A stretch of 63,414 nucleotides of DNA, the filler included, from Bacteriovoracaceae bacterium (GTDB lineage Bacteria; Bdellovibrionota; Bacteriovoracia; Bacteriovoracales; Bacteriovoracaceae): the NCBI GenBank assembly GCA_018649885.1. It is 7 parts of 7 records of this genome, joined end to end, with 100 filler letters (N's around TTAATTAATTAA, not from the genome) between each part and the next. Parts side by side here need not be neighbours in the genome. Positions count along the whole stretch, not along the records: positions 1 to 15,496 come from JABIHA010000052.1; 6 more parts are not named here. One strand, written 5' to 3'. Below the pieces are notes generated by a model. That model ran no database searches and had not been told where the DNA came from. It saw nothing but the letters and a program-made list of their open reading frames with translations. This document shows positions 10,104-18,706 of this stretch, piece after piece (the stretch's first letter is position 1; the number at the start of each line of letters is the position of its first letter). The position numbers and the translations under genes are program-made.

Positions 10104-11597
10104 TTGAGACGAAATAAAGACTCTTTAAAATTCATTTTAGGTCTAAAACTAAAAGATCTTCGAGCAAAGAAAGGACTCTCCCTTAAAGAGCTGGCCTCCA
10201 TGAGTGGCCTTTCATCTAGCTACTTAAATGAAATCGAAAAAGGCAAAAAGTATCCTAAGGTTGAAAAACTTCTGTCACTCGCAAGAGGACTTAAGGTTTC
10301 ACTAGATGATTTAACTTCAGTAAGAATTTCAAAAAAGCTTAAGCCTATTTTAGAATTCATAGAAAGTGATTTGTATAACCGACTGCCACTAGATGCCTTT
10401 GGACTTACAGATCAAGATTTATTTGAATTGATGTCAGGTGCACCTGAGAAATTTTCTTCTTTTATAATGGCACTTCAAGGACTTGCTAGGTTTCACGACT
10501 TTAGCATGGATAAATTTCATAAAATTGCTCTTAGATCCTATAAAGAACTCAATGGAAATTATTTTCCAGAAATTGAAACGATTGCTCGCGTTACCCGATC
10601 ACAATATTTTAATGAGACTCCCTTATCCATTGAAGGCCTTAAAAAAGTACTTGAAGAAAAGTTTCACTATAATATAGACACCACGACTCTTGGTGAAGAC
10701 TCTACACTGACTAAACTTAGATCTCTTTATAAGGAAGGTCCTCCCCATCATTTACTTCTTGGAGGAAACCTAAAAGATTCACATATTTTATTTATATTGG
10801 CCAAGGAGCTTGGCAGTTGTGTGATGGGCCTACCCAAAACAGTACTGGGTGGGAAAAACCTCTACGATCAGACATTTAATGAAATTCTAAGTGACTATAA
10901 ATCATCCTATTTCTCTGGCTCATTACTAATTAATGAAAACGAGCTGGCGGCAGATATGAGAGGCTTTTTTGGTAATTCCGACTTTAATGGACAAGACCTG
11001 TTAAAGATTAAGGCCAAGTACGCTGCAGGGACTGAAGTCTTTATGCAGAGACTGACCCAAATACTTCCCACCCACTTTGGATTAGATCAGCTCTTTTTCT
11101 TGAAGTTTAATAACCCATTTCTCAGCTCTAACCCTAATAAGATTACCCTCTCACAAGAAATTCACCTAGGTGGTGTTCACAACCCTCACGGAGTTGAACA
11201 AAATGAGCACTATTGTAGAAGATGGATCACTGTTGCCCTGTTGAACGAGCTAGCAAAGGGGGACAATAGAGAGCGCACTCACATAGTAGAAGCGCAAAAA
11301 TCAATAATGATAGAAAATGGTTCTACCTATTTTTGTATATCTGTGGCGATGCCATCAAAAAGAAAAGATGACATGAATAGTTGTGTAACCATTGGCATGC
11401 GTTGTAATGAGCAATTTCAAAATTCTGCTAAATTTTGGAATTCCTCGGAAGTCAGAACCAAAGAAGTCTCCCAAACATGTGAAAGGTGTCCCATAACCGA
11501 CTGTGATGATCGTGCTTGTGCCCCTTCTATTTACCTTGAAAGTCAGTCAGATAAACAAATTAAAGAAAAAATCACCAGTCTGCTAAATTTGTTATAA
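10104..11597 (+). CDS. XRE-family RamB/PccR-like (short-chain fatty acyl-CoA) regulator, divergent from aceBA
   Basis: N-terminal XRE HTH (LSSSYLNEIEKGKKYP), NYFPEIE, HYCRRW and C-terminal TCERCPITDCDDRA. Sits divergently to the glyoxylate shunt genes. Confidence 0.88.
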   Translation: MRRNKDSLKFILGLKLKDLRAKKGLSLKELASMSGLSSSYLNEIEKGKKYPKVEKLLSLARGLKVSLDDLTSVRISKKLKPILEFIESDLYNRLPLDAFGLTDQDLFELMSGAPEKFSSFIMALQGLARFHDFSMDKFHKIALRSYKELNGNYFPEIETIARVTRSQYFNETPLSIEGLKKVLEEKFHYNIDTTTLGEDSTLTKLRSLYKEGPPHHLLLGGNLKDSHILFILAKELGSCVMGLPKTVLGGKNLYDQTFNEILSDYKSSYFSGSLLINENELAADMRGFFGNSDFNGQDLLKIKAKYAAGTEVFMQRLTQILPTHFGLDQLFFLKFNNPFLSSNPNKITLSQEIHLGGVHNPHGVEQNEHYCRRWITVALLNELAKGDNRERTHIVEAQKSIMIENGSTYFCISVAMPSKRKDDMNSCVTIGMRCNEQFQNSAKFWNSSEVRTKEVSQTCERCPITDCDDRACAPSIYLESQSDKQIKEKITSLLNLL

Positions 11598-11643: not shown

Positions 11644-12618
11644 GTGGTGATGAAAAATGCAGAATTAATCCCAGTAAGTGCAAAAGAGAGTCCTCTTTTT
11701 CGTGAAACCAAAATGAAGAGGTATCACTTCTCACTACTCACTCCAGATAGAGTGTGTCCTTGCAGTATCTACGTCTATTTTAGAGGTAAGTATATTGAAG
11801 CAGTAAAAAGAGAAGGAATCGTAGCGTTAGAGCTTATGGCAAAGATGTATCATGCCCAAAATTATTTCTTCTATGTCCTAGAAGACGAAGATGATCTGTT
11901 TAGACACTGGATTAAGGCCCGCCATTCAATAGAATTTTTACCCATGCTTGAAGTTAATGAAAAAAATAAAGTCGTGGAATTTAAAACTTCAAATTATATC
12001 AAGGCGGCCCTGGCATCTATCCACTTTAGCGAAGAGAATGCCTCAACAAAGCGGTTTTTAAAGTCAGCTCATCATAAATTAAAGCAAGTTGTCTGCCACC
12101 CATCATTAAAATGGTTCTTTGAATCAGAATGGGAAAAAGAGACAATTGAGCACACATCAAGAGTAGCATTTATGATGCTGCTATACTTAGAATTCCAAGA
12201 AGTAATTGCAAAAACGCTCAATCCTTTTGAGCTGATTCAAGCGTGTATCATCCATCACCTGGATGGTGAGCTTAGCTCATATAGAGAAGGCGAAACCTAT
12301 CACAAGACCCTGAGTTATCTTACAAGTAAAAACCATATAGTTTCTGAAAACGTCTGCAAAATTTTGGGTGGAGTCAACGAGTTTCACAATGGTTCTGGAA
12401 AACCTAAAGCGCTCAAGCGAGATGATTTAGCGCTGGAAAACCAACTACTGTCAGTTGTTGACTATTTTGACCATTTTAGAAAATCAAATAATCAACTTAC
12501 GAGAAGTAAGGCCCTAGCAAATACAAAGGTAGAGATGGTCTCTAAAAAAGCACTTTTTAATCCTAGTATGCTCAAAGGCTTTATGATGTTTTTAGATCTA
12601 ATAGAAATTAAGACCTAG
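11644..12618 (+). CDS. Degenerate HD-GYP-like protein
   Basis: EHTSRVA, IIHHLDG (HD to HH), VNEFHNGSGKP (HHExxDGxGYP altered) and LSVVDYFD. The true start may be 11713. Confidence 0.7.
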   Translation: MVMKNAELIPVSAKESPLFRETKMKRYHFSLLTPDRVCPCSIYVYFRGKYIEAVKREGIVALELMAKMYHAQNYFFYVLEDEDDLFRHWIKARHSIEFLPMLEVNEKNKVVEFKTSNYIKAALASIHFSEENASTKRFLKSAHHKLKQVVCHPSLKWFFESEWEKETIEHTSRVAFMMLLYLEFQEVIAKTLNPFELIQACIIHHLDGELSSYREGETYHKTLSYLTSKNHIVSENVCKILGGVNEFHNGSGKPKALKRDDLALENQLLSVVDYFDHFRKSNNQLTRSKALANTKVEMVSKKALFNPSMLKGFMMFLDLIEIKT

Positions 12619-12624
12619 AGGAAT

Positions 12625-14076
12625 ATGATTGATTATTTTTCGATTACAGATTTCATAAAAAACTCTACCCTTTATTTTTTCTTAAAGGGAAGAAAGTATC
12701 AAGTCGTAGATGCTAGTGGTGTTGTTGTTCAAGATCATTCCGGTGGTTCGAAAGTCTTAACGCCATTAAAGTTGAGTCACGGAAAAGTTTGTTATGGAAC
12801 GCTCTATGTTGACGATAAAAGTATCCAGGTGGAGCTCATTGAAAAAGAGCTAGAAAGCTATCTAGAGCAAAAATGCCAAATGGCGTGGACAGCGCAAAGT
12901 CAAATTTTAACAAATGAGCTCATATCAAATTTAAAATCTTCAGAAAATTCAAATTTTGAAACAAAAGATCTACTTGTGAATCTTATTGAAGGCGTAAGGT
13001 CTCACATTCGATGTGAAAAAGTGCTTTTTTTCACAGTTCAAAATGGAAGAAATTTGCAAGCAACTATTGGTATGGGAAAAGAGGGAAAAATCAGGCGACA
13101 AGAGTTTGATAAAACCGTTTGGAATAAGGCCGCAGAAACGGCCGCCTGTAGCAGAAAAATTTATTTTATCAATGACCTAGAAAAAGACCCTCACTATGAA
13201 TTCTTTGATTTTGATGATGGCAGTAAAACAAACAACCTAGCAGCATTTCCCATCATGCACAGTGGAAATGTCATTGGAGTCTTTTTAACTGTCAATAAGG
13301 CCGAAGGTATCTACAATGAATATGATTTGGAAATTATTCACCGCTTTGAACAATTATCCGGTCATATAATTGAAGAAAGTTTATATAACCAACAACTCTC
13401 AAGAGCGGAGAAGATTTCATCAGAACTCTCTAAATATATGTCCAAGAGCATGGCCGAGAATTTAAAAGAAAAAGGGGCAGGGCAGGCCGGAGGTCAGCAA
13501 AAAAAAGTAGTTGTACTTTTTTTAAAAATTAATAACTTTCAGAAATTTGCAACAAAACTCAAACCGACTCAACTAATTAATCTTCTTAACTTCATTTATG
13601 AGGAAGTCCACCAGGTGGCCAATATTTATGATGGCACACTTGATAAAATCATGACTCCAGTTATGATGTTCTTGTGGAATCATCCCTTCGCTCAAGACGA
13701 ACCTGAAGACTTGGCCTTACAATGCGCTCTTGAAGTTCAAAAGAAGATACACACTCTATCTTCTATCATAAGTGCTCAATTTGGAATAAAAGATTTCAGC
13801 GTTTGCATCGGGATTAATTCAGGTGAGGCCGTGGCCGGCAATATTGGCTGTGATGAATTTTTTGATAACACCGTTATTGGAGATACTATTAATACCGCCC
13901 AAAGACTGCAAGCATCAGGCACTGGGCCCGAGATAATAATCAGTGATGGAACATTTACTAAAAGCTCTTGTGCCAAAATGCAGCTTTTTAAAAATGTTAG
14001 TATCAAGGCCAAAGGTAAAAGCCTTGAGCTCAGTGCATACAAACTCCATGCAAGGATAGAAAAAGATGTTGCCTGA
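12625..14076 (+). CDS. GAF plus class III nucleotide cyclase, C2-like half (lacks the metal-binding Asp residues)
   Basis: GAF motif LAAFPIMHSGNVIGVFLTVNK. Cyclase motifs LFLKINNF, DKIMTP, IGINSGEAVAGNIG and TVIGDTINTAQRLQ. Confidence 0.88.
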   Translation: MIDYFSITDFIKNSTLYFFLKGRKYQVVDASGVVVQDHSGGSKVLTPLKLSHGKVCYGTLYVDDKSIQVELIEKELESYLEQKCQMAWTAQSQILTNELISNLKSSENSNFETKDLLVNLIEGVRSHIRCEKVLFFTVQNGRNLQATIGMGKEGKIRRQEFDKTVWNKAAETAACSRKIYFINDLEKDPHYEFFDFDDGSKTNNLAAFPIMHSGNVIGVFLTVNKAEGIYNEYDLEIIHRFEQLSGHIIEESLYNQQLSRAEKISSELSKYMSKSMAENLKEKGAGQAGGQQKKVVVLFLKINNFQKFATKLKPTQLINLLNFIYEEVHQVANIYDGTLDKIMTPVMMFLWNHPFAQDEPEDLALQCALEVQKKIHTLSSIISAQFGIKDFSVCIGINSGEAVAGNIGCDEFFDNTVIGDTINTAQRLQASGTGPEIIISDGTFTKSSCAKMQLFKNVSIKAKGKSLELSAYKLHARIEKDVA

Positions 14077-15496
14077 CTACCTTAATTTAAAATTTATAAT
14101 TGGAGATCACTTTATTGAAAAAAACCAATTTGGTGATACTTTTGCTATTTTTAGTACCTTTGGTGAATGTGTTGCAAGTAAGAACCTCGAAGCGGCCAAA
14201 AAGCTAGACCCAATTGCTATTAATGTTGGCGTCCAAAACTACGGCACACTTTTCATCGACCCAGCAAAGTCTTTGACTCTTTCAAAAATGGTAGCTTCAG
14301 AGATTCACGAATACCTTACTCTCACCGAAAGTGCTCACGCACTCACCATTGAAGAAGTCATTATTAAAGATCTTGATAAAATTCTAGAACTATCTCGCTC
14401 TGATAGTATGAAAATAGAAGAAGTTCTAGAAACATTTTTTCTCTATTTAAAGGCACACATCCCTTTTAAATCTGCAAATATCCTGACAGAAAACAATAAA
14501 AGTGAGTTAAAGCCGTTCATGACTCTCGATAGCAAAGGGAAAATAAAAAGAGATTCTGGAGATGGCGGACAATTTTTCAACATAAGTGACCTCGAAGAAA
14601 TGTGTCACATCAATCAAAAGATATATTACGAAAAAGACCAAAAGATGTATGGATACTTTCCTATTGCCTATAACAACTATTCCCTTGGGGTATTAGATCT
14701 TTGCGATATTTTAGTAGATCTTCACATTGAGCAAAATAGGAGCATTATCACAAAGTTTCTAACTGTCTTAAGCCACATTATTTACCAATATCAAATAAAA
14801 AATGAAATTGGCCAAAGCCTTAAAGTGAGTCAAGATCTTAGAAAATATATGTCAGATAATTTATTTAATAGTATTGCCGGAGGCAGTGGAGCAGATTCAA
14901 CTAAAGTTCAAAAGAAACTAATCGTCAGCATGTACGCAGATATAAGGTCATTTACAAAAATAAGTGAAAGCCTTGATCCAAAGGTTTTAGTAGAGTTATT
15001 AAATATCTACTTTTCTGAGCTGACACCAATTATCGAAGAGAGTGAAGGTACTATTGATAAATTTGTAGGTGATATGATCACGGCCTTTTGGAATGCTCCA
15101 GGCAATATAGAAAACCCTGAAATTAAAGCTGTCCAAGCAGCACTCAAAATGCAAAGAGCAATGGTAAGAAAAGTGGCGCCAAAATGGAAAGAGGCCGGAA
15201 TTGAACACATGGGAATAGGAATAGGTATTCATGTGGGTCAGGCCATCGTGGGTGATTTTGGATCCAAGGCCTTTAATAATTATACCGCCATTGGACCAGT
15301 CACTGAAAGAGCTCAGTGGCTAGAGAGTCTGGCAAGGCCTGCTGAGGTATGGGTTTCAGAAAGTCTCTACAACAAAGCGGGCAAAAAAATCCCGCCACCA
15401 ACAAGAAAAGATTCAAATAATATATACAGAGGCGAGAGAACTAATATCTACATCTACAAACCTGAAAACTACCCCGACTATACAAAAGCTTCATAA
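14066..15496 (+). CDS. GAF-like plus class III nucleotide cyclase, C1-like half (lacks the Asn/Arg pair)
   Basis: Motifs MYADIRSFT, DKFVGDMI, GIGIHVGQAIVG and YTAIGPVTERAQWLE. Overlaps the previous gene by 11 nt. Confidence 0.9.
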   Translation: MLPDYLNLKFIIGDHFIEKNQFGDTFAIFSTFGECVASKNLEAAKKLDPIAINVGVQNYGTLFIDPAKSLTLSKMVASEIHEYLTLTESAHALTIEEVIIKDLDKILELSRSDSMKIEEVLETFFLYLKAHIPFKSANILTENNKSELKPFMTLDSKGKIKRDSGDGGQFFNISDLEEMCHINQKIYYEKDQKMYGYFPIAYNNYSLGVLDLCDILVDLHIEQNRSIITKFLTVLSHIIYQYQIKNEIGQSLKVSQDLRKYMSDNLFNSIAGGSGADSTKVQKKLIVSMYADIRSFTKISESLDPKVLVELLNIYFSELTPIIEESEGTIDKFVGDMITAFWNAPGNIENPEIKAVQAALKMQRAMVRKVAPKWKEAGIEHMGIGIGIHVGQAIVGDFGSKAFNNYTAIGPVTERAQWLESLARPAEVWVSESLYNKAGKKIPPPTRKDSNNIYRGERTNIYIYKPENYPDYTKAS

Positions 15497-15596
15497 NNNN
15501 NNNNNNNNNNNNNNNNNNNNNNNNNNNNNNNNNNNNNNNNTTAATTAATTAANNNNNNNNNNNNNNNNNNNNNNNNNNNNNNNNNNNNNNNNNNNN
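15497..15596. other. Artificial contig linker
   Basis: N44-TTAATTAATTAA-N44 all-frame stop spacer. Confidence 0.99.
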
Positions 15597-16427
15597 AACA
15601 CAATATAAAGCTGAAAGAGCAATTGTGACTGTCCCTCTACTAGTATTACCCATCCCAAAATCCCAAATTAATGAAATAGGAACGATTGAACTCATAAACA
15701 ATGCAGAGAGCGATGGTGGCGAGGATTGGATACCAACAATGTTAAATAATTGAATCATAATTATCATCAGAGAAAGTAGGAAGCTATACAGAAAATATTG
15801 AACTTTAAATTCATTTACTATGTGTTGTAGCTGAGGAAGTAGCATTATCAAAAATAGCATCGAGATGAGTAAACTAACTCTTCTTGTTAACTCAAAAGGC
15901 TTGTAAGATTTAGATATGACTCTTGTTGATGTTTGAGACAGTACGAAGCTAATAAGAATCGCTAAGAATAAGATTATATTTGTTGTTGAGTGGCCTTGAT
16001 CGGAAGGTCTTTCAATTACATATATTAAAAAAAGAAGAATTAGCGGAAGAAAACTTTGTATTCTTGCTTTTGGGCTTAGATTTTCTAACTTCCAATCATT
16101 GGAAAAGAAAAGTGCAAGAGTCGGAGCAATACATTTTATTAACACAATATTTGATGGGTGCAGGTTCTTTGGAAAATAAAGATATAGGAAATAGACAACA
16201 ACATACCCTGTGGCCCAGCCCAATAGGCAGAGATTAGATTTTTTGTCATTTAGAATAAGTGGCTTTTTGTCTGGCCTCATAGAAAGTATAAGAAAATTGA
16301 AAAAGTTGGCCAGGCACAAAATAGCGATATTAATGATGGAGTCAGATGAGATACTTTTAAATAACTGCAGTGCCGAACAAAGTAACAAGCTTGAGATAAT
16401 AAAATTAAAAACGCTGAGCTTTGCCAT
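15597..16427 (-). CDS. EamA/DMT-like multi-pass membrane protein (3' end cut by the contig edge)
   Basis: About 10 hydrophobic segments in two repeats, with DMT-like ...IAPTLALF and ...SSIVPISLIWD. Confidence 0.55.
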
Positions 16428-18706
16428 TAGAAATTGCTCACCTTTTTAGAAGAGGTGTCATTGACAGTGAAAATCCTAATATTATTTACCATTCCCCTTA
16501 ATCTTCTTGGTTTTAATTCAAGTAGTGTAGACTTGTCTTGAATATATTTATATGCATCTTCTAGGAGCAGGCATTCACCGTTTCCTGCAATACTATTTAA
16601 AACTCTTGCAAGTCTATCAATTGCCCCATCAGATACTTGATTGACTGCTCGAATTTGTCCTTTGAACCGATGAACATTTGTCATCGAATTCATAACAAAT
16701 CTAAATTGCATAGGCATATGTATCGAAAAATCCTTACAGTACTTACTTAGCTCTTCTTCATGTTTACTCAATGCATTTAAAATTATGAGTCCTCTCTGAG
16801 TAGCAAGGGATTCATCTTCATCTTCATACAAGCAAGGTATAACAAAGGCTATTTCATCGCCATGGACTCTGTTAATAATAATCCCTAATTCTTTGTGCCT
16901 GCTCCAAAAATCATGAATCCAAGAATCAAGTGCCAAATCAATAATATCCGCGCCAAATACATCATTTAAGGTAGAGCTTAGTACTAAATCGCCTTTAATG
17001 ACACAGTTTGAGCCAAAGTTCTCAGACATTTGAAAGTGTTCCCTGAAATAATCTTCAGATTTGATCTGAATTTCATGAACGCCTAACCGTAGTGATGTAA
17101 TTAATTCTGCATCAGAAATTTCTTTTTTCTTAGAAATAATAATATTTGAAGCATTAAGCGTAACCCGACAAATTTTCTTCATAAATGGCTCAATAAAAGG
17201 CGAAAGACGCTGACTTTGAAAGTAAGTGATACACAGTAGTGATACAACCGTACCATTTATAATTAAAGGATAGATAATATATTCTTGTGAGGGTTCACCT
17301 AAAGAGCCACGAATCGTTTTTCTTTCATTAAAGGCTTCGTTCAATAATTCGCTCTCCACCAGAATTGTATTTTTTGATTTCTCTATGAAACTACCATATG
17401 TTCCTAAGAGAATTATTTTTCCTTTTTTCACTTGTGAAATAGACACTCTATTAGCACGAACAATGGATGCAATCTTTTCTGCAAAATTATCAATTGCGTT
17501 ATTTCCCAAAAAATGAAGTGGTTCCATATCATTTGAAACTAGGGCATCTAATGAACTTAATTGTTTTAAAAGGTCATTTCTATTTTTGTATCGTTGATTG
17601 TATAGGCTTAGAATTAGAGTGGCGATTGCTAAAATACCAATATAGTGATTTGTATAATAATATTTTGATTTTAATAAGAATAAATTTATCACATCGAATG
17701 TAAATGAGATTGCTCCTAGGGCCAAAAGAGCCGAAATGTGTCTTGGGAGCGAATGAAAATGCTTGTATTGAATTTTTTTTAGATGAATAAGAATTAGAAT
17801 TGAAGAATAGAAAACCGTTATTGAAAAACCTGCACAAATTCCTAAAGTCGTAATCTCTCTTTTGGAAGAAAAAAATATAAAAAATGAAGAGAGGATAATA
17901 ACGGAAAATAATATTTTATCGATTTTGAACTTTTCAAATATTTTACCAGTAAAGTGTTTACTAATAGAGATTAGAAAGAATGCATACATTGTAGTTTGAA
18001 TCGAGTCATTAATTCTTGCCACAAGAGGCATGGAGATAAACATCCTTGGTATTGCGGTTAAGCTTATAAATGTTCCGATACACAATGAAAGAGTAATAGT
18101 TATTTGCAATTTTTCAAATAATGAAACTCCAGAAACTAGAAAAAGTGAAAAATAGATAAATCCAATAAAAAGGAATATTTCGAAAATAAAATAAGTGATA
18201 TTTGTTGAGTTTTTTATAACGCTAATAATTAAGTTTTTAAAGTTAAGAATCCTTGGTGATCCAGACCTAATGCCAGTTTGTCGTGGCAGTATATCTTGAT
18301 AGTGTAGAGTGAATGAGTATTCTCCTGCTTCGGTATAGAATGATTTAAGATCCAAGAAAAAGGGGATGATTCTCATGTAGTCAGGCTTTACTTCTTTACT
18401 TCTGTAAAGGCCATGGGTGAAGTGTGTATTTCGGATTGGCATTTGATTGAAATGAGTAAATTCAATCAAGCTTGAATCACCAACCTCTCCAATGTAAAGA
18501 AATTTGCCTTGGTCAATATCGGAACTTTTTACTTCGATTTTGCATTTATATAAACCTTTGATGTATTTTGAAGGGCCAATATCTACACCTACAGTTTTTC
18601 CTGATTCGATTAATTGGTCACCATCTACAAAGTAGTGTATACAATTCGCAGTTTGAGAGTATGCCTTAATTGTGAATAGAAAAACAAATAAGATTAGCTT
18701 TTTCAC
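16427..18706 (-). CDS. Membrane sensor: exported domain, about 7 TM, GAF-like domain and atypical class III cyclase-like domain
   Basis: Signal peptide and TM block. GAF-like IIYPLIINGTVVSLL. Cyclase-like IKGDLVLSS, RVHGDEIAF, AIDRLARV and GECLL...LRGMVNNIRIF. Confidence 0.65.
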   Translation of the reverse strand: MKKLILFVFLFTIKAYSQTANCIHYFVDGDQLIESGKTVGVDIGPSKYIKGLYKCKIEVKSSDIDQGKFLYIGEVGDSSLIEFTHFNQMPIRNTHFTHGLYRSKEVKPDYMRIIPFFLDLKSFYTEAGEYSFTLHYQDILPRQTGIRSGSPRILNFKNLIISVIKNSTNITYFIFEIFLFIGFIYFSLFLVSGVSLFEKLQITITLSLCIGTFISLTAIPRMFISMPLVARINDSIQTTMYAFFLISISKHFTGKIFEKFKIDKILFSVIILSSFFIFFSSKREITTLGICAGFSITVFYSSILILIHLKKIQYKHFHSLPRHISALLALGAISFTFDVINLFLLKSKYYYTNHYIGILAIATLILSLYNQRYKNRNDLLKQLSSLDALVSNDMEPLHFLGNNAIDNFAEKIASIVRANRVSISQVKKGKIILLGTYGSFIEKSKNTILVESELLNEAFNERKTIRGSLGEPSQEYIIYPLIINGTVVSLLCITYFQSQRLSPFIEPFMKKICRVTLNASNIIISKKKEISDAELITSLRLGVHEIQIKSEDYFREHFQMSENFGSNCVIKGDLVLSSTLNDVFGADIIDLALDSWIHDFWSRHKELGIIINRVHGDEIAFVIPCLYEDEDESLATQRGLIILNALSKHEEELSKYCKDFSIHMPMQFRFVMNSMTNVHRFKGQIRAVNQVSDGAIDRLARVLNSIAGNGECLLLEDAYKYIQDKSTLLELKPRRLRGMVNNIRIFTVNDTSSKKVSNF

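Follow-up and report, generated by a model that had tools for sequence, protein, structure and literature searches.

Overlapping paralogous genes in a Bacteriovoracaceae bacterium probably encode the complementary halves of a class III adenylyl cyclase

Results

The window (the whole stretch of DNA analysed, 63,414 nucleotides with filler) comes from a member of the Bacteriovoracaceae, a predatory-type bacterium. ORF calling placed two overlapping sister ORFs in it, hereafter referred to as A (483 aa) and B (476 aa), downstream of a degenerate gene for an HD-GYP-like protein. The coordinates of the genes and of the residues discussed below are collected in Table 1. The stop codon of the HD-GYP-like gene lies 6 nt from the start of A, and a GAGGA-type ribosome-binding site is found directly 5' of the A start codon. 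The 11-nt overlap between A and B that had been described in the first-pass annotation was recovered, and the orthologous junctions are tight in every cassette, ranging from overlapping to up to 23 nt apart. The overlap suggests translational coupling, and such a tight junction would favour equal synthesis of both subunits. YPDYT, a conserved motif, closes the B protein, and the stop codon of the gene ends on the final base of contig C68 (position 15496). Positions 15497-15596 are N and linker, and the bases beyond belong to another contig; ORFs at 15549-18706 on the minus strand were rejected as downstream context because they lie past this junction. A 759-aa ORF in that interval gave no Pfam match and no PDB sequence match at an E value of 0.1 or better.

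Table 1 Coordinates of the cassette genes and of the features discussed, counted along the window.
Feature	Position	Strand	Remarks
Degenerate HD-GYP-like gene (Bd1817-like)	11644..12618	+	324 aa; first cassette gene
Gene A	12625..14076	+	483 aa; N-terminal region, GAF, linker helix, class III cyclase domain; 'C2-like' half
A GAF domain, residues about 116-248	12970..13368	+	Pfam GAF_2 E 3.2e-7, GAF E 2.7e-6
A K301, first metal-Asp position, lost	13525..13527	+	Asp in 0/7 genome copies and 0/13 global A-type representatives
A K341 (adenine-specifying Lys, kept) to P345 (second metal-Asp position, lost)	13645..13659	+	alignment
A T416, N423, R427 (substrate Thr; transition-state Asn, Arg), kept	13870..13905	+	columns invariant
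A K463-G464-K465 loop	14011..14019	+	invariant in A, degenerate in B
A/B overlap, 11 nt	14066..14076	+	B ATG at 14066; A TGA at 14074-14076
Gene B	14066..15496	+	476 aa; full-length paralogue of A; 'C1-like' half
B D292, first metal Asp, kept	14939..14941	+	invariant in B alignment
B K332 to D336 (Lys kept; second metal Asp kept)	15059..15073	+	alignment
B T407 kept; E414 at Asn and W418 at Arg position, lost	15284..15319	+	alignment

Both proteins contain a class III cyclase domain that matches PF00211 above the gathering score (E 1.3e-16 for A, 1.1e-13 for B), and both match solved cyclases with E values of 1e-19 to 1e-24. Catalytic residues were placed by alignment to the solved cyclases CyaB (3r5g), Cya2 (2w01) and 6fht. 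The six catalytic positions are KKPTNR in A and DKDTEW in B, so that the full set is present in neither chain and is obtained only across both. In A, 'LFLKI' aligned onto 'FFSDI' puts K301 at the position of the first metal-binding Asp, and 'DKIMTP' aligned onto 'DKFVGD' puts P345 at that of the second and retains K341; T416, N423 and R427 are retained in the segment TVIGDTINTAQRL. In B, D292 is retained within 'YADIRSF', K332 and D336 within 'DKFVGD', and T407 further on, and alignment of GPVTERAQWLES onto GAQVNLTYRIES shows the Asn replaced by E414 and the Arg by W418. The division of residues that had been read in the first-pass annotation, with A devoid of both metal-binding Asp and keeping Lys, Thr, Asn and Arg, and B keeping both Asp and devoid of Asn and Arg, was thus borne out by the alignments to solved cyclases. 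The Lys/Thr pair is the signature of adenine-type specificity.

GAF-type N-termini had likewise been assigned to both proteins. Pfam confirmed this directly for A (Table 1). A Pfam GAF search with this B gave no match; the alignment has a gap there and the GAF-type region is shortened. For B, the assignment is suggested by its relatives: Pfam GAF was matched in 5 of the 7 B orthologues, and in a profile comparison the two paralogues align at full length, GAF-type region included (473 columns, hhalign probability 100%).

The cassette, in which the degenerate HD-GYP gene is followed by A and then by B, was found in 7 of 237 Bacteriovoracaceae genomes, always with the catalytic residues split in this way. 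The complementary pattern held in all seven, which represent six genera. Across these genomes the first-Asp position of A reads K, K, Q, R, Q, L and Q and its second-Asp position P, D, E, D, E, P and D, while its K, T, N and R are always present; the T, N and R are invariant in 13/13 global A-type representatives as well. In B, the D, K, D and T are always present, the Asn position reads E, Q, E, K, Q, E and E, and the Arg position W, M, Q, M, Q, F and T; Asn and Arg are both missing from 7/7 B genome copies and from 12/12 global B-type representatives. The residues that build one site are therefore invariant across copies and the lost positions drift, as expected there from relaxed constraint. 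Overall identity among A proteins is about 25-30%, yet their K/T/N/R set and KGK loop are invariant. The cyclase domain of B has more invariant columns than that of A.

The 151 best of 1.84 billion global cluster representatives included 13 A-type and 12 B-type sequences, all of which obeyed the split. The cluster names of these global relatives read 'class 3 adenylate cyclase' only.

Background cyclases were canonical. In a control set of 164 cyclase domains from 160 fetched loci, the residues were DKDTNR in 149 and DKDSNR in 6; the remaining 9 domains all came from A/B cassettes. DKDTNR was also found in 26 of the 32 domains of a second control set, the rest being 4 A/B copies and 2 copies of a dead pair described below. 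A profile search of the same genome returned one other class III cyclase domain, which belongs to a canonical 761-aa protein on another contig. With canonical background cyclases and a conserved split, the pattern goes beyond chance.

Single-gene relatives that share the upstream HD-like gene were found in six genomes and at one metagenome locus (L122), and all of them are canonical (DKDTNR). In a phylogenetic tree the single-gene relatives group with A and B in a single clade (100/99). Within it, monophyly is supported for A (99/99) as well as for B (99/94), and the two show mirrored internal branching. The order in which A, B and the single-gene forms branched appears as an open fork in this tree, and supports were 85-88 in a second one. 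The complementary losses and the synteny whose recurrence in homologues had been suggested as a check are thus conserved in 7/7 cassettes, and the losses also in 13/13 A-type and 12/12 B-type representatives. Homologues that occur singly or decay at random had also been considered; the single-copy relatives found are canonical, and within cassettes the split is uniform.

A second syntenic cassette is present in the three genomes of one genus, g83 (G243, G244 and G245), with intact ORFs and with the catalytic residues lost from both copies. Its A' copy reads GQELDQ or KQEQDQ and its B' copy NNDSKI, DDDSKI or NNDSKM. G243, rated 100% complete, carries the dead cassette only; counting it, the cassette is still rare (8/237 family genomes). 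In the tree, the two dead copies fall within the A and B clades, on long branches of 2.02 and 1.45 changes per column, which marks the dead pair as a later derivative and not as the ancestral condition.

An HD-GYP-like gene lies 5' of the cyclase gene or genes in all cassettes examined. The protein matches Pfam HD_5 (E 2e-8), as do 6 of its 9 orthologues, and the HD-GYP fold is supported by an AlphaFold model (pLDDT 81) whose top Foldseek matches are the HD-GYP domains of Bd1817 (E 1e-8), PA4781 and DvhD. The HD dyad is lost, reading HH, HE, HN, HQ, SN or YY across orthologues, and so is the GYP motif, which reads GKP, GNP, GRP, GIP, GFP or GMP or is absent; the only invariant residues are L, W, W, F and F. 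Bd1817 of Bdellovibrio bacteriovorus (3tm8, 3tmb, 3tmc, 3tmd) is the best structural match and covers the full length, but at a TM-score of just 0.39-0.41 and an identity of 13-15%. Bd1817, an unconventional HD-GYP protein, reportedly retains its metal centre. In the cassette protein the dyad Asp is missing as well. Bd1817 is described as being without the active-site Tyr (PMC3188283).

A complex of A (residues 255-483) and B (residues 245-476) was modelled with ATP and 2 Mg. The A-B model scored 0.80, compared with 0.00 for the best of 3 controls, against a mark that is reached by 116/157 solved complexes and 2/215 mismatched pairs; the custom alignments and the riding ligands differ from the conditions of the tool's calibration. 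Since the pair resembles cyclase complexes already solved, this pass may reflect only that resemblance. Model runs agreed in at least 95% of contacts, with partner pLDDT of at least 88. The modelled contacts join A 416-427 to B 295-298 and 333-335, and A 462-466, which includes the KGK loop, to B 297-298.

Discussion

Taken at the level of sequence and complex model, A and B probably constitute an obligate heterodimeric class III adenylyl cyclase with one intact and one degenerate ATP site. The two proteins would associate head-to-tail by way of the cyclase domains and of the linker helices before them. In the competent site, B would give the metal-binding D292 and D336, and A would give the adenine-specifying K341 together with T416, the transition-state residues N423 and R427, and the KGK loop. 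The second, symmetry-related site, with K301 and P345 from A and E414 and W418 from B, would be non-catalytic. Because each gene keeps one half-site, cAMP would most likely be formed by the mixed pair only. The existence of sister lineages with the same cassette and one canonical cyclase points to a single tandem duplication of a canonical GAF-cyclase gene, 3' of the degenerate HD-GYP gene, followed by complementary loss, after which each copy would have depended on the other.

The comparative evidence for the obligate heterodimer proposed in the first-pass annotation is strong, including as it does the mirrored trees and the canonical single-gene forms, and from it we infer real A-B pairing, cAMP as the product and inactive homodimers. 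The accompanying claim of two dead homodimers has a firm basis for A, where no metal-binding Asp is left. For B it would follow from the missing Asn and Arg, and could be too strict, since a chain that has both Asp as well as Lys and Thr could retain weak activity as a homodimer.

An alternative built on this last point, which we regard as unlikely, is that B is the enzyme, acting as a weak or otherwise activated homodimer, and that A is a non-catalytic regulator that modulates or titrates it, so that the heterodimer would not be obligatory. The invariance of D292, K332, D336 and T407 in 7/7 genome copies and 12/12 global representatives would agree with this, as would the larger number of invariant columns in the B cyclase domain. 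The invariant K/T/N/R set and KGK loop of A, however, are hard to explain unless A contributes to a site, and B has lost, in every copy, exactly the two residues that A retains. Replacement of the Asn or the Arg costs class III enzymes most of their activity, which likewise argues against B acting on its own.

Distinctly improbable, in our view, is that no cyclic nucleotide is made and that the pair is a non-catalytic scaffold, such as a regulator that binds a nucleotide or a GAF ligand and acts together with the HD-GYP-like protein. The upstream protein is itself without HD dyad and GYP motif, and the doubly dead cassette is intact and syntenic in three g83 species; its persistence indicates that catalysis is not the sole reason for which the pair is retained. 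In the A/B copies, however, the residues of one complete site are invariant as those of the other drift, and the position of the dead pair, on long branches within the A and B clades, identifies it as derived. That A and B are recent duplicates decaying at random, their complementarity a coincidence, is barely credible: duplicates do often decay, and nothing else speaks for it, but the identical split in 7/7 genomes from 6 genera and in 13 and 12 global clusters, the intact ORFs, the mirrored trees and the canonical background cyclases contradict it. The one-site heterodimer is the reading preferred here.

For such a heterodimer, the invariant Lys and Thr of B in the spent site suggest that an adenine nucleotide or another ligand could bind there, making it an allosteric pocket. 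Likening that pocket to the forskolin site, or regarding the pair as an AND gate on two GAF inputs, is speculation. A wider scenario, in which canonical homodimer, one-site heterodimer and dead heterodimer are three successive states, the pseudo-site is allosteric and the inputs of the two sensors set the output, is conceivable and, on balance, doubtful.

The closest solved relatives by sequence are canonical bacterial class III cyclases, and A and B share fold and family with homodimers such as P. aeruginosa CyaB (3r5g), Synechocystis Cya2 (2w01) and Rv1625c. Guo and colleagues reportedly found in 2001 that metal-Asp and transition-state mutants of Rv1625c, each inactive alone, were active when mixed, a logic that A and B would share; those were laboratory point mutants of one gene, whereas the A/B division occurs naturally, is ancient and has become fixed in two diverged genes. 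According to PMC4174876 and PMC5699072, canonical homodimers carry all six residues in each chain and form two symmetric sites, which is true of neither A nor B. The same papers, with PMC9552081, present bacterial class III cyclases as symmetric two-site homodimers and the one-site heterodimer as a eukaryotic development. No description of a natural bacterial two-gene class III heterodimer was found in searches of open-access literature. GcyB and GcyC of Rhodospirillum centenum were considered as a precedent and rejected, being described as non-catalytic subunits and hypothetical proteins (PMC4681086).

Soluble guanylyl cyclase, with its alpha and beta subunits, is a two-gene class III cyclase that works solely as a heterodimer (PMC3591389), and in the chytrid rhodopsin-cyclase/NeoR pairs the genes are clustered and the homodimers inactive (PMC10622942). 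Both systems belong to eukaryotes, are specific for GTP and carry H-NOX/PAS or rhodopsin sensors, whereas A and B have ATP-type Lys/Thr residues and GAF-type sensors; of the sensor domains Pfam matched GAF only, in A and in B orthologues, with no H-NOX or PAS, and the specificity residues, Lys and Thr, are not GTP-type.

The nearest parallel is provided by the mammalian membrane adenylyl cyclases, whose head-to-tail wreath dimer has one active site and one pseudo-site (PMC4174876) and whose complementary partition between C1 and C2 is matched by B and A, respectively. The mammalian enzyme is one polypeptide with two six-helix membrane domains in addition to C1 and C2, unlike A and B, which are two ORFs with GAF-type N-termini and no membrane spans. 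The origin of A and B would be independent and bacterial, by local tandem duplication, and control by forskolin or G proteins is not implied. As a small, soluble and genetically simple system, the pair may be informative on how interdependence between paralogues becomes fixed, on the use of a spent pseudo-site and on the joint control of one catalytic site by two sensor domains. If the proposed mechanism is correct, one-site asymmetry also evolved independently in bacteria, through plain tandem duplication and complementary loss, and the un-duplicated sister form is still extant. Should the wider three-state scenario hold too, the clade would be a natural bacterial replay of the origin of C1/C2 asymmetry in animals.

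Gene organization of the cyclase locus

The source genome is a draft of 5.45 Mb in 151 contigs (92% complete), and the window is a chain of its contigs. The contig carrying the two cyclase genes A and B ends at window base 15496, the final base of the B stop codon. Positions 15497-15596 consist of N and the six-frame stop linker 'ttaattaattaa', after which a different contig begins. True genomic context is therefore available upstream only, and downstream ORFs are not context. The start codon of A is preceded by a GAGGA-type site overlapping the stop of the upstream gene, and the B ATG sits within the final codons of A, in line with the 11-nt overlap described in the first-pass annotation.

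Coordinates of the features discussed (window positions unless a locus is named)
Feature	Position	Strand	Basis or source
HTH_3/ScfR-like regulator	10104-11597	+	ORF + profile match
HD_5 protein, 324 aa	11644-12618	+	ORF + profile match
Gene A, 483 aa	12625-14076	+	ORF + PF00211
Gene B, 476 aa	14066-15496	+	ORF + PF00211
Multi-pass membrane ORF, 759 aa	16427-18706	-	next contig
Dead cassette	L229:3752-7674		genus g83
Dead cassette	L238:2488-6381		genus g83
Dead cassette	L239:3128-7051		genus g83

The HTH_3 regulator lies directly upstream of the cassette, shows a weak ScfR C-terminal match and is absent from the corresponding place in the other cassette genomes compared. The 759-aa ORF matched no Pfam family and gave no meaningful PDB sequence match; 'HGDEIAFV' in its C-terminal part faintly resembles nucleotide-cyclase or GGDEF motifs.

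Catalytic residues and domains of A and B

Both proteins matched PF00211 above the Pfam threshold and solved bacterial cyclases with E-values of 1e-19 to 1e-24. Upon alignment to these structures, the first and second metal-Asp positions of A were occupied by K301 and P345, while K341, T416, N423 and R427 were retained. B retained D292, K332, D336 and T407, while E414 and W418 take the places of Asn and Arg, respectively. The first-pass description of A as lacking both metal-binding Asp residues and of B as lacking Asn and Arg was thereby confirmed, and every motif it quoted was found as given. Its assignment of GAF domains to both N-termini held by Pfam for A but not for the window's B, which fell below detection and has a gap in the corresponding region, although GAF was matched by 5/7 B orthologues. 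Family profiles of A and B aligned over 473 columns with 100% probability, which indicates that the two are full-length paralogues.

Close to its C-terminus, A has an invariant KGK loop (17/17 rows, some redundant), of which the third position in B is Lys in just 5/18 rows. A conserved KP.(D/N)YPDY(T) motif at the C-terminus of B (window 15461-15493) is missing from A; this YPDY-type motif forms the C-terminal end of B-type proteins.

Conservation of the split

All 237 available genomes of the family were searched with protein B. The pair was present in seven genomes from six genera as adjacent genes, A first every time, with the HD-like gene preceding A in 7/7 and outer flanks that vary. Catalytic positions were read via one profile alignment and are given as six-letter codes (Asp1, Lys, Asp2, Asp/Thr, Asn, Arg). 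In the seven A copies, position 1 was never Asp (K, K, Q, R, Q, L, Q), Asp2 was drifting (P, D, E, D, E, P, D), and Lys, Thr, Asn and Arg were all present. Each B copy contained Asp, Lys, Asp and Thr, whereas Asn was replaced throughout (E, Q, E, K, Q, E, E), as was Arg (W, M, Q, M, Q, F, T). When 1.84 billion cluster representatives were searched by profile and the best 151 matches read, the pattern was the same: all 13 A-type representatives lacked Asp1 and carried K, T, N and R, and all 12 B-type representatives carried D, K, D and T without Asn and Arg. The first-pass annotation had proposed checking whether the complementary losses and synteny are conserved; in the seven genomes both are. 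Among distant relatives, P0051, P0048 and P0032 carry two or three cyclase domains per chain; P0051 (1415 aa) reads DKDSNW + NKSSNR, a fused complementary arrangement.

Background cyclases were read as controls. Of 164 domains from 160 loci in genome and metagenome collections, 149 were DKDTNR and 6 DKDSNR; the other 9 all lay in A/B cassettes, the window's own contig among them. A second set from the same phylum (32 domains, 29 loci) contained 26 DKDTNR domains, the exceptions being four A/B copies and one dead pair. Of the first 80 loci, just four gave more than one cyclase match (three A/B cassettes and one single ORF). The one further class III domain detectable by profile in the source genome is canonical and belongs to a protein of 761 aa encoded on a different contig.

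Origin of the pair and a dead second cassette

Close relatives with a single cyclase gene were found in G379, G427, G413, G493 (its copy is locus L042) and G367, all of one family of the same phylum, and further ones in G495 (another family) and metagenome locus L122. In each, a lone cyclase of ~485-510 aa is encoded after the HD-like gene. Singly occurring homologues had been named as evidence against the heterodimer; those found are all canonical DKDTNR. Their C-terminal YVYRPLSY resembles the B-type ending.

In a careful tree (28 rows, with an outgroup of 10 canonical cyclases at greater distance), one clade (100/99) united A, B and the single forms, and A (99/99) and B (99/94) were each monophyletic. 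Both subtrees share the shape (G000,G016), (G143,G137), (G020,(G245,G244)), in keeping with a single duplication that preceded the divergence of these genera, the two copies then being inherited together. The relative order of A, B and single forms is an open fork in this tree and received supports of 85-88 in a quick tree, from which seven near-duplicate or long-branch rows were removed and to which 25 others were added.

A family profile search added G243 as the eighth genome and gave a third match each in G244 and G245, all belonging to an additional syntenic cassette of genus g83 (HD', A', B'). Catalytic residues are lost in A' (GQELDQ or KQEQDQ) and B' (NNDSKI, DDDSKI or NNDSKM), and all three species have intact ORFs; in G243, rated 100% complete, the dead cassette is the only one. 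In the quick tree A' fell within A and B' within B, beside the g83 and G020 copies (long branches, 2.02 and 1.45), a nesting that indicates the dead pair is a later copy of the complementary pair.

The upstream gene is present with single, split and dead cassettes alike. A model of its 324-aa product (pLDDT 81) matched best, over its full length, Bd1817, an unconventional HD-GYP protein of Bdellovibrio (E 1e-8, TM 0.39-0.41), followed by other HD-GYP domains. Neither the HD dyad nor the GYP motif is conserved in this family, which has just five invariant residues, all hydrophobic. Given the motif loss and this distribution, the protein is probably a non-catalytic partner.

Predicted A-B heterodimer and alternatives

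A 255-483 and B 245-476 were modelled with 7-row alignments, ATP and two Mg. The pair scored 0.80 against 0.00 for the best of three controls, which is compatible with the postulated heterodimer, although the pass may reflect only likeness to solved cyclase dimers. That mark was reached by 116/157 solved complexes and 2/215 mismatched pairs, and the alignments and ligands used here depart from those of the tool's calibration. Runs shared at least 95% of their contacts, with partner pLDDT of at least 88. In the model, B 295-298 and 333-335 face the T416-R427 segment and the KGK loop of A, beside both B Asp residues, and the linker helices pair.

The residue patterns and the model together suggest that A and B probably form a heterodimer in which a single ATP site would combine Asp from B with Lys, Thr, Asn and Arg from A, the other site being spent. 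Set beside the retention of these four residues in every A copy, B as a weak enzyme regulated by A, a role its intact Asp, Lys, Asp and Thr would allow, appears unlikely. The dead pair shows that such pairs can persist for reasons beyond catalysis, which somewhat lowers confidence in a catalytic heterodimer; a wholly non-catalytic scaffold is nevertheless considered less likely still, with the complementary residues kept in all seven cassettes. Random decay of both genes is highly improbable beside that same pattern. Within the preferred heterodimer, the forskolin-like pocket and AND gate of the first-pass annotation are ideas that may apply; ligand binding would be in keeping with the invariant Lys and Thr that B has in the spent site, which do not prove it.

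Comparison with known cyclases

PMC4174876 and PMC5699072 describe bacterial class III enzymes as homodimers with two sites, and PMC9552081 places the duplication behind pseudo-heterodimers in an early eukaryote. The first-pass annotation knew of no characterised bacterial two-gene case, and none occurring naturally was found in open-access full text, a coverage that does not prove absence. The particular value of the A/B family is that an un-duplicated sister form is still living and a dead derivative exists. The mammalian C1/C2 cyclases (PMC4174876) follow the logic proposed here for A and B, which is also shared by two-gene eukaryotic heterodimers, namely sGC (PMC3591389) and the chytrid rhodopsin cyclases (PMC10622942).
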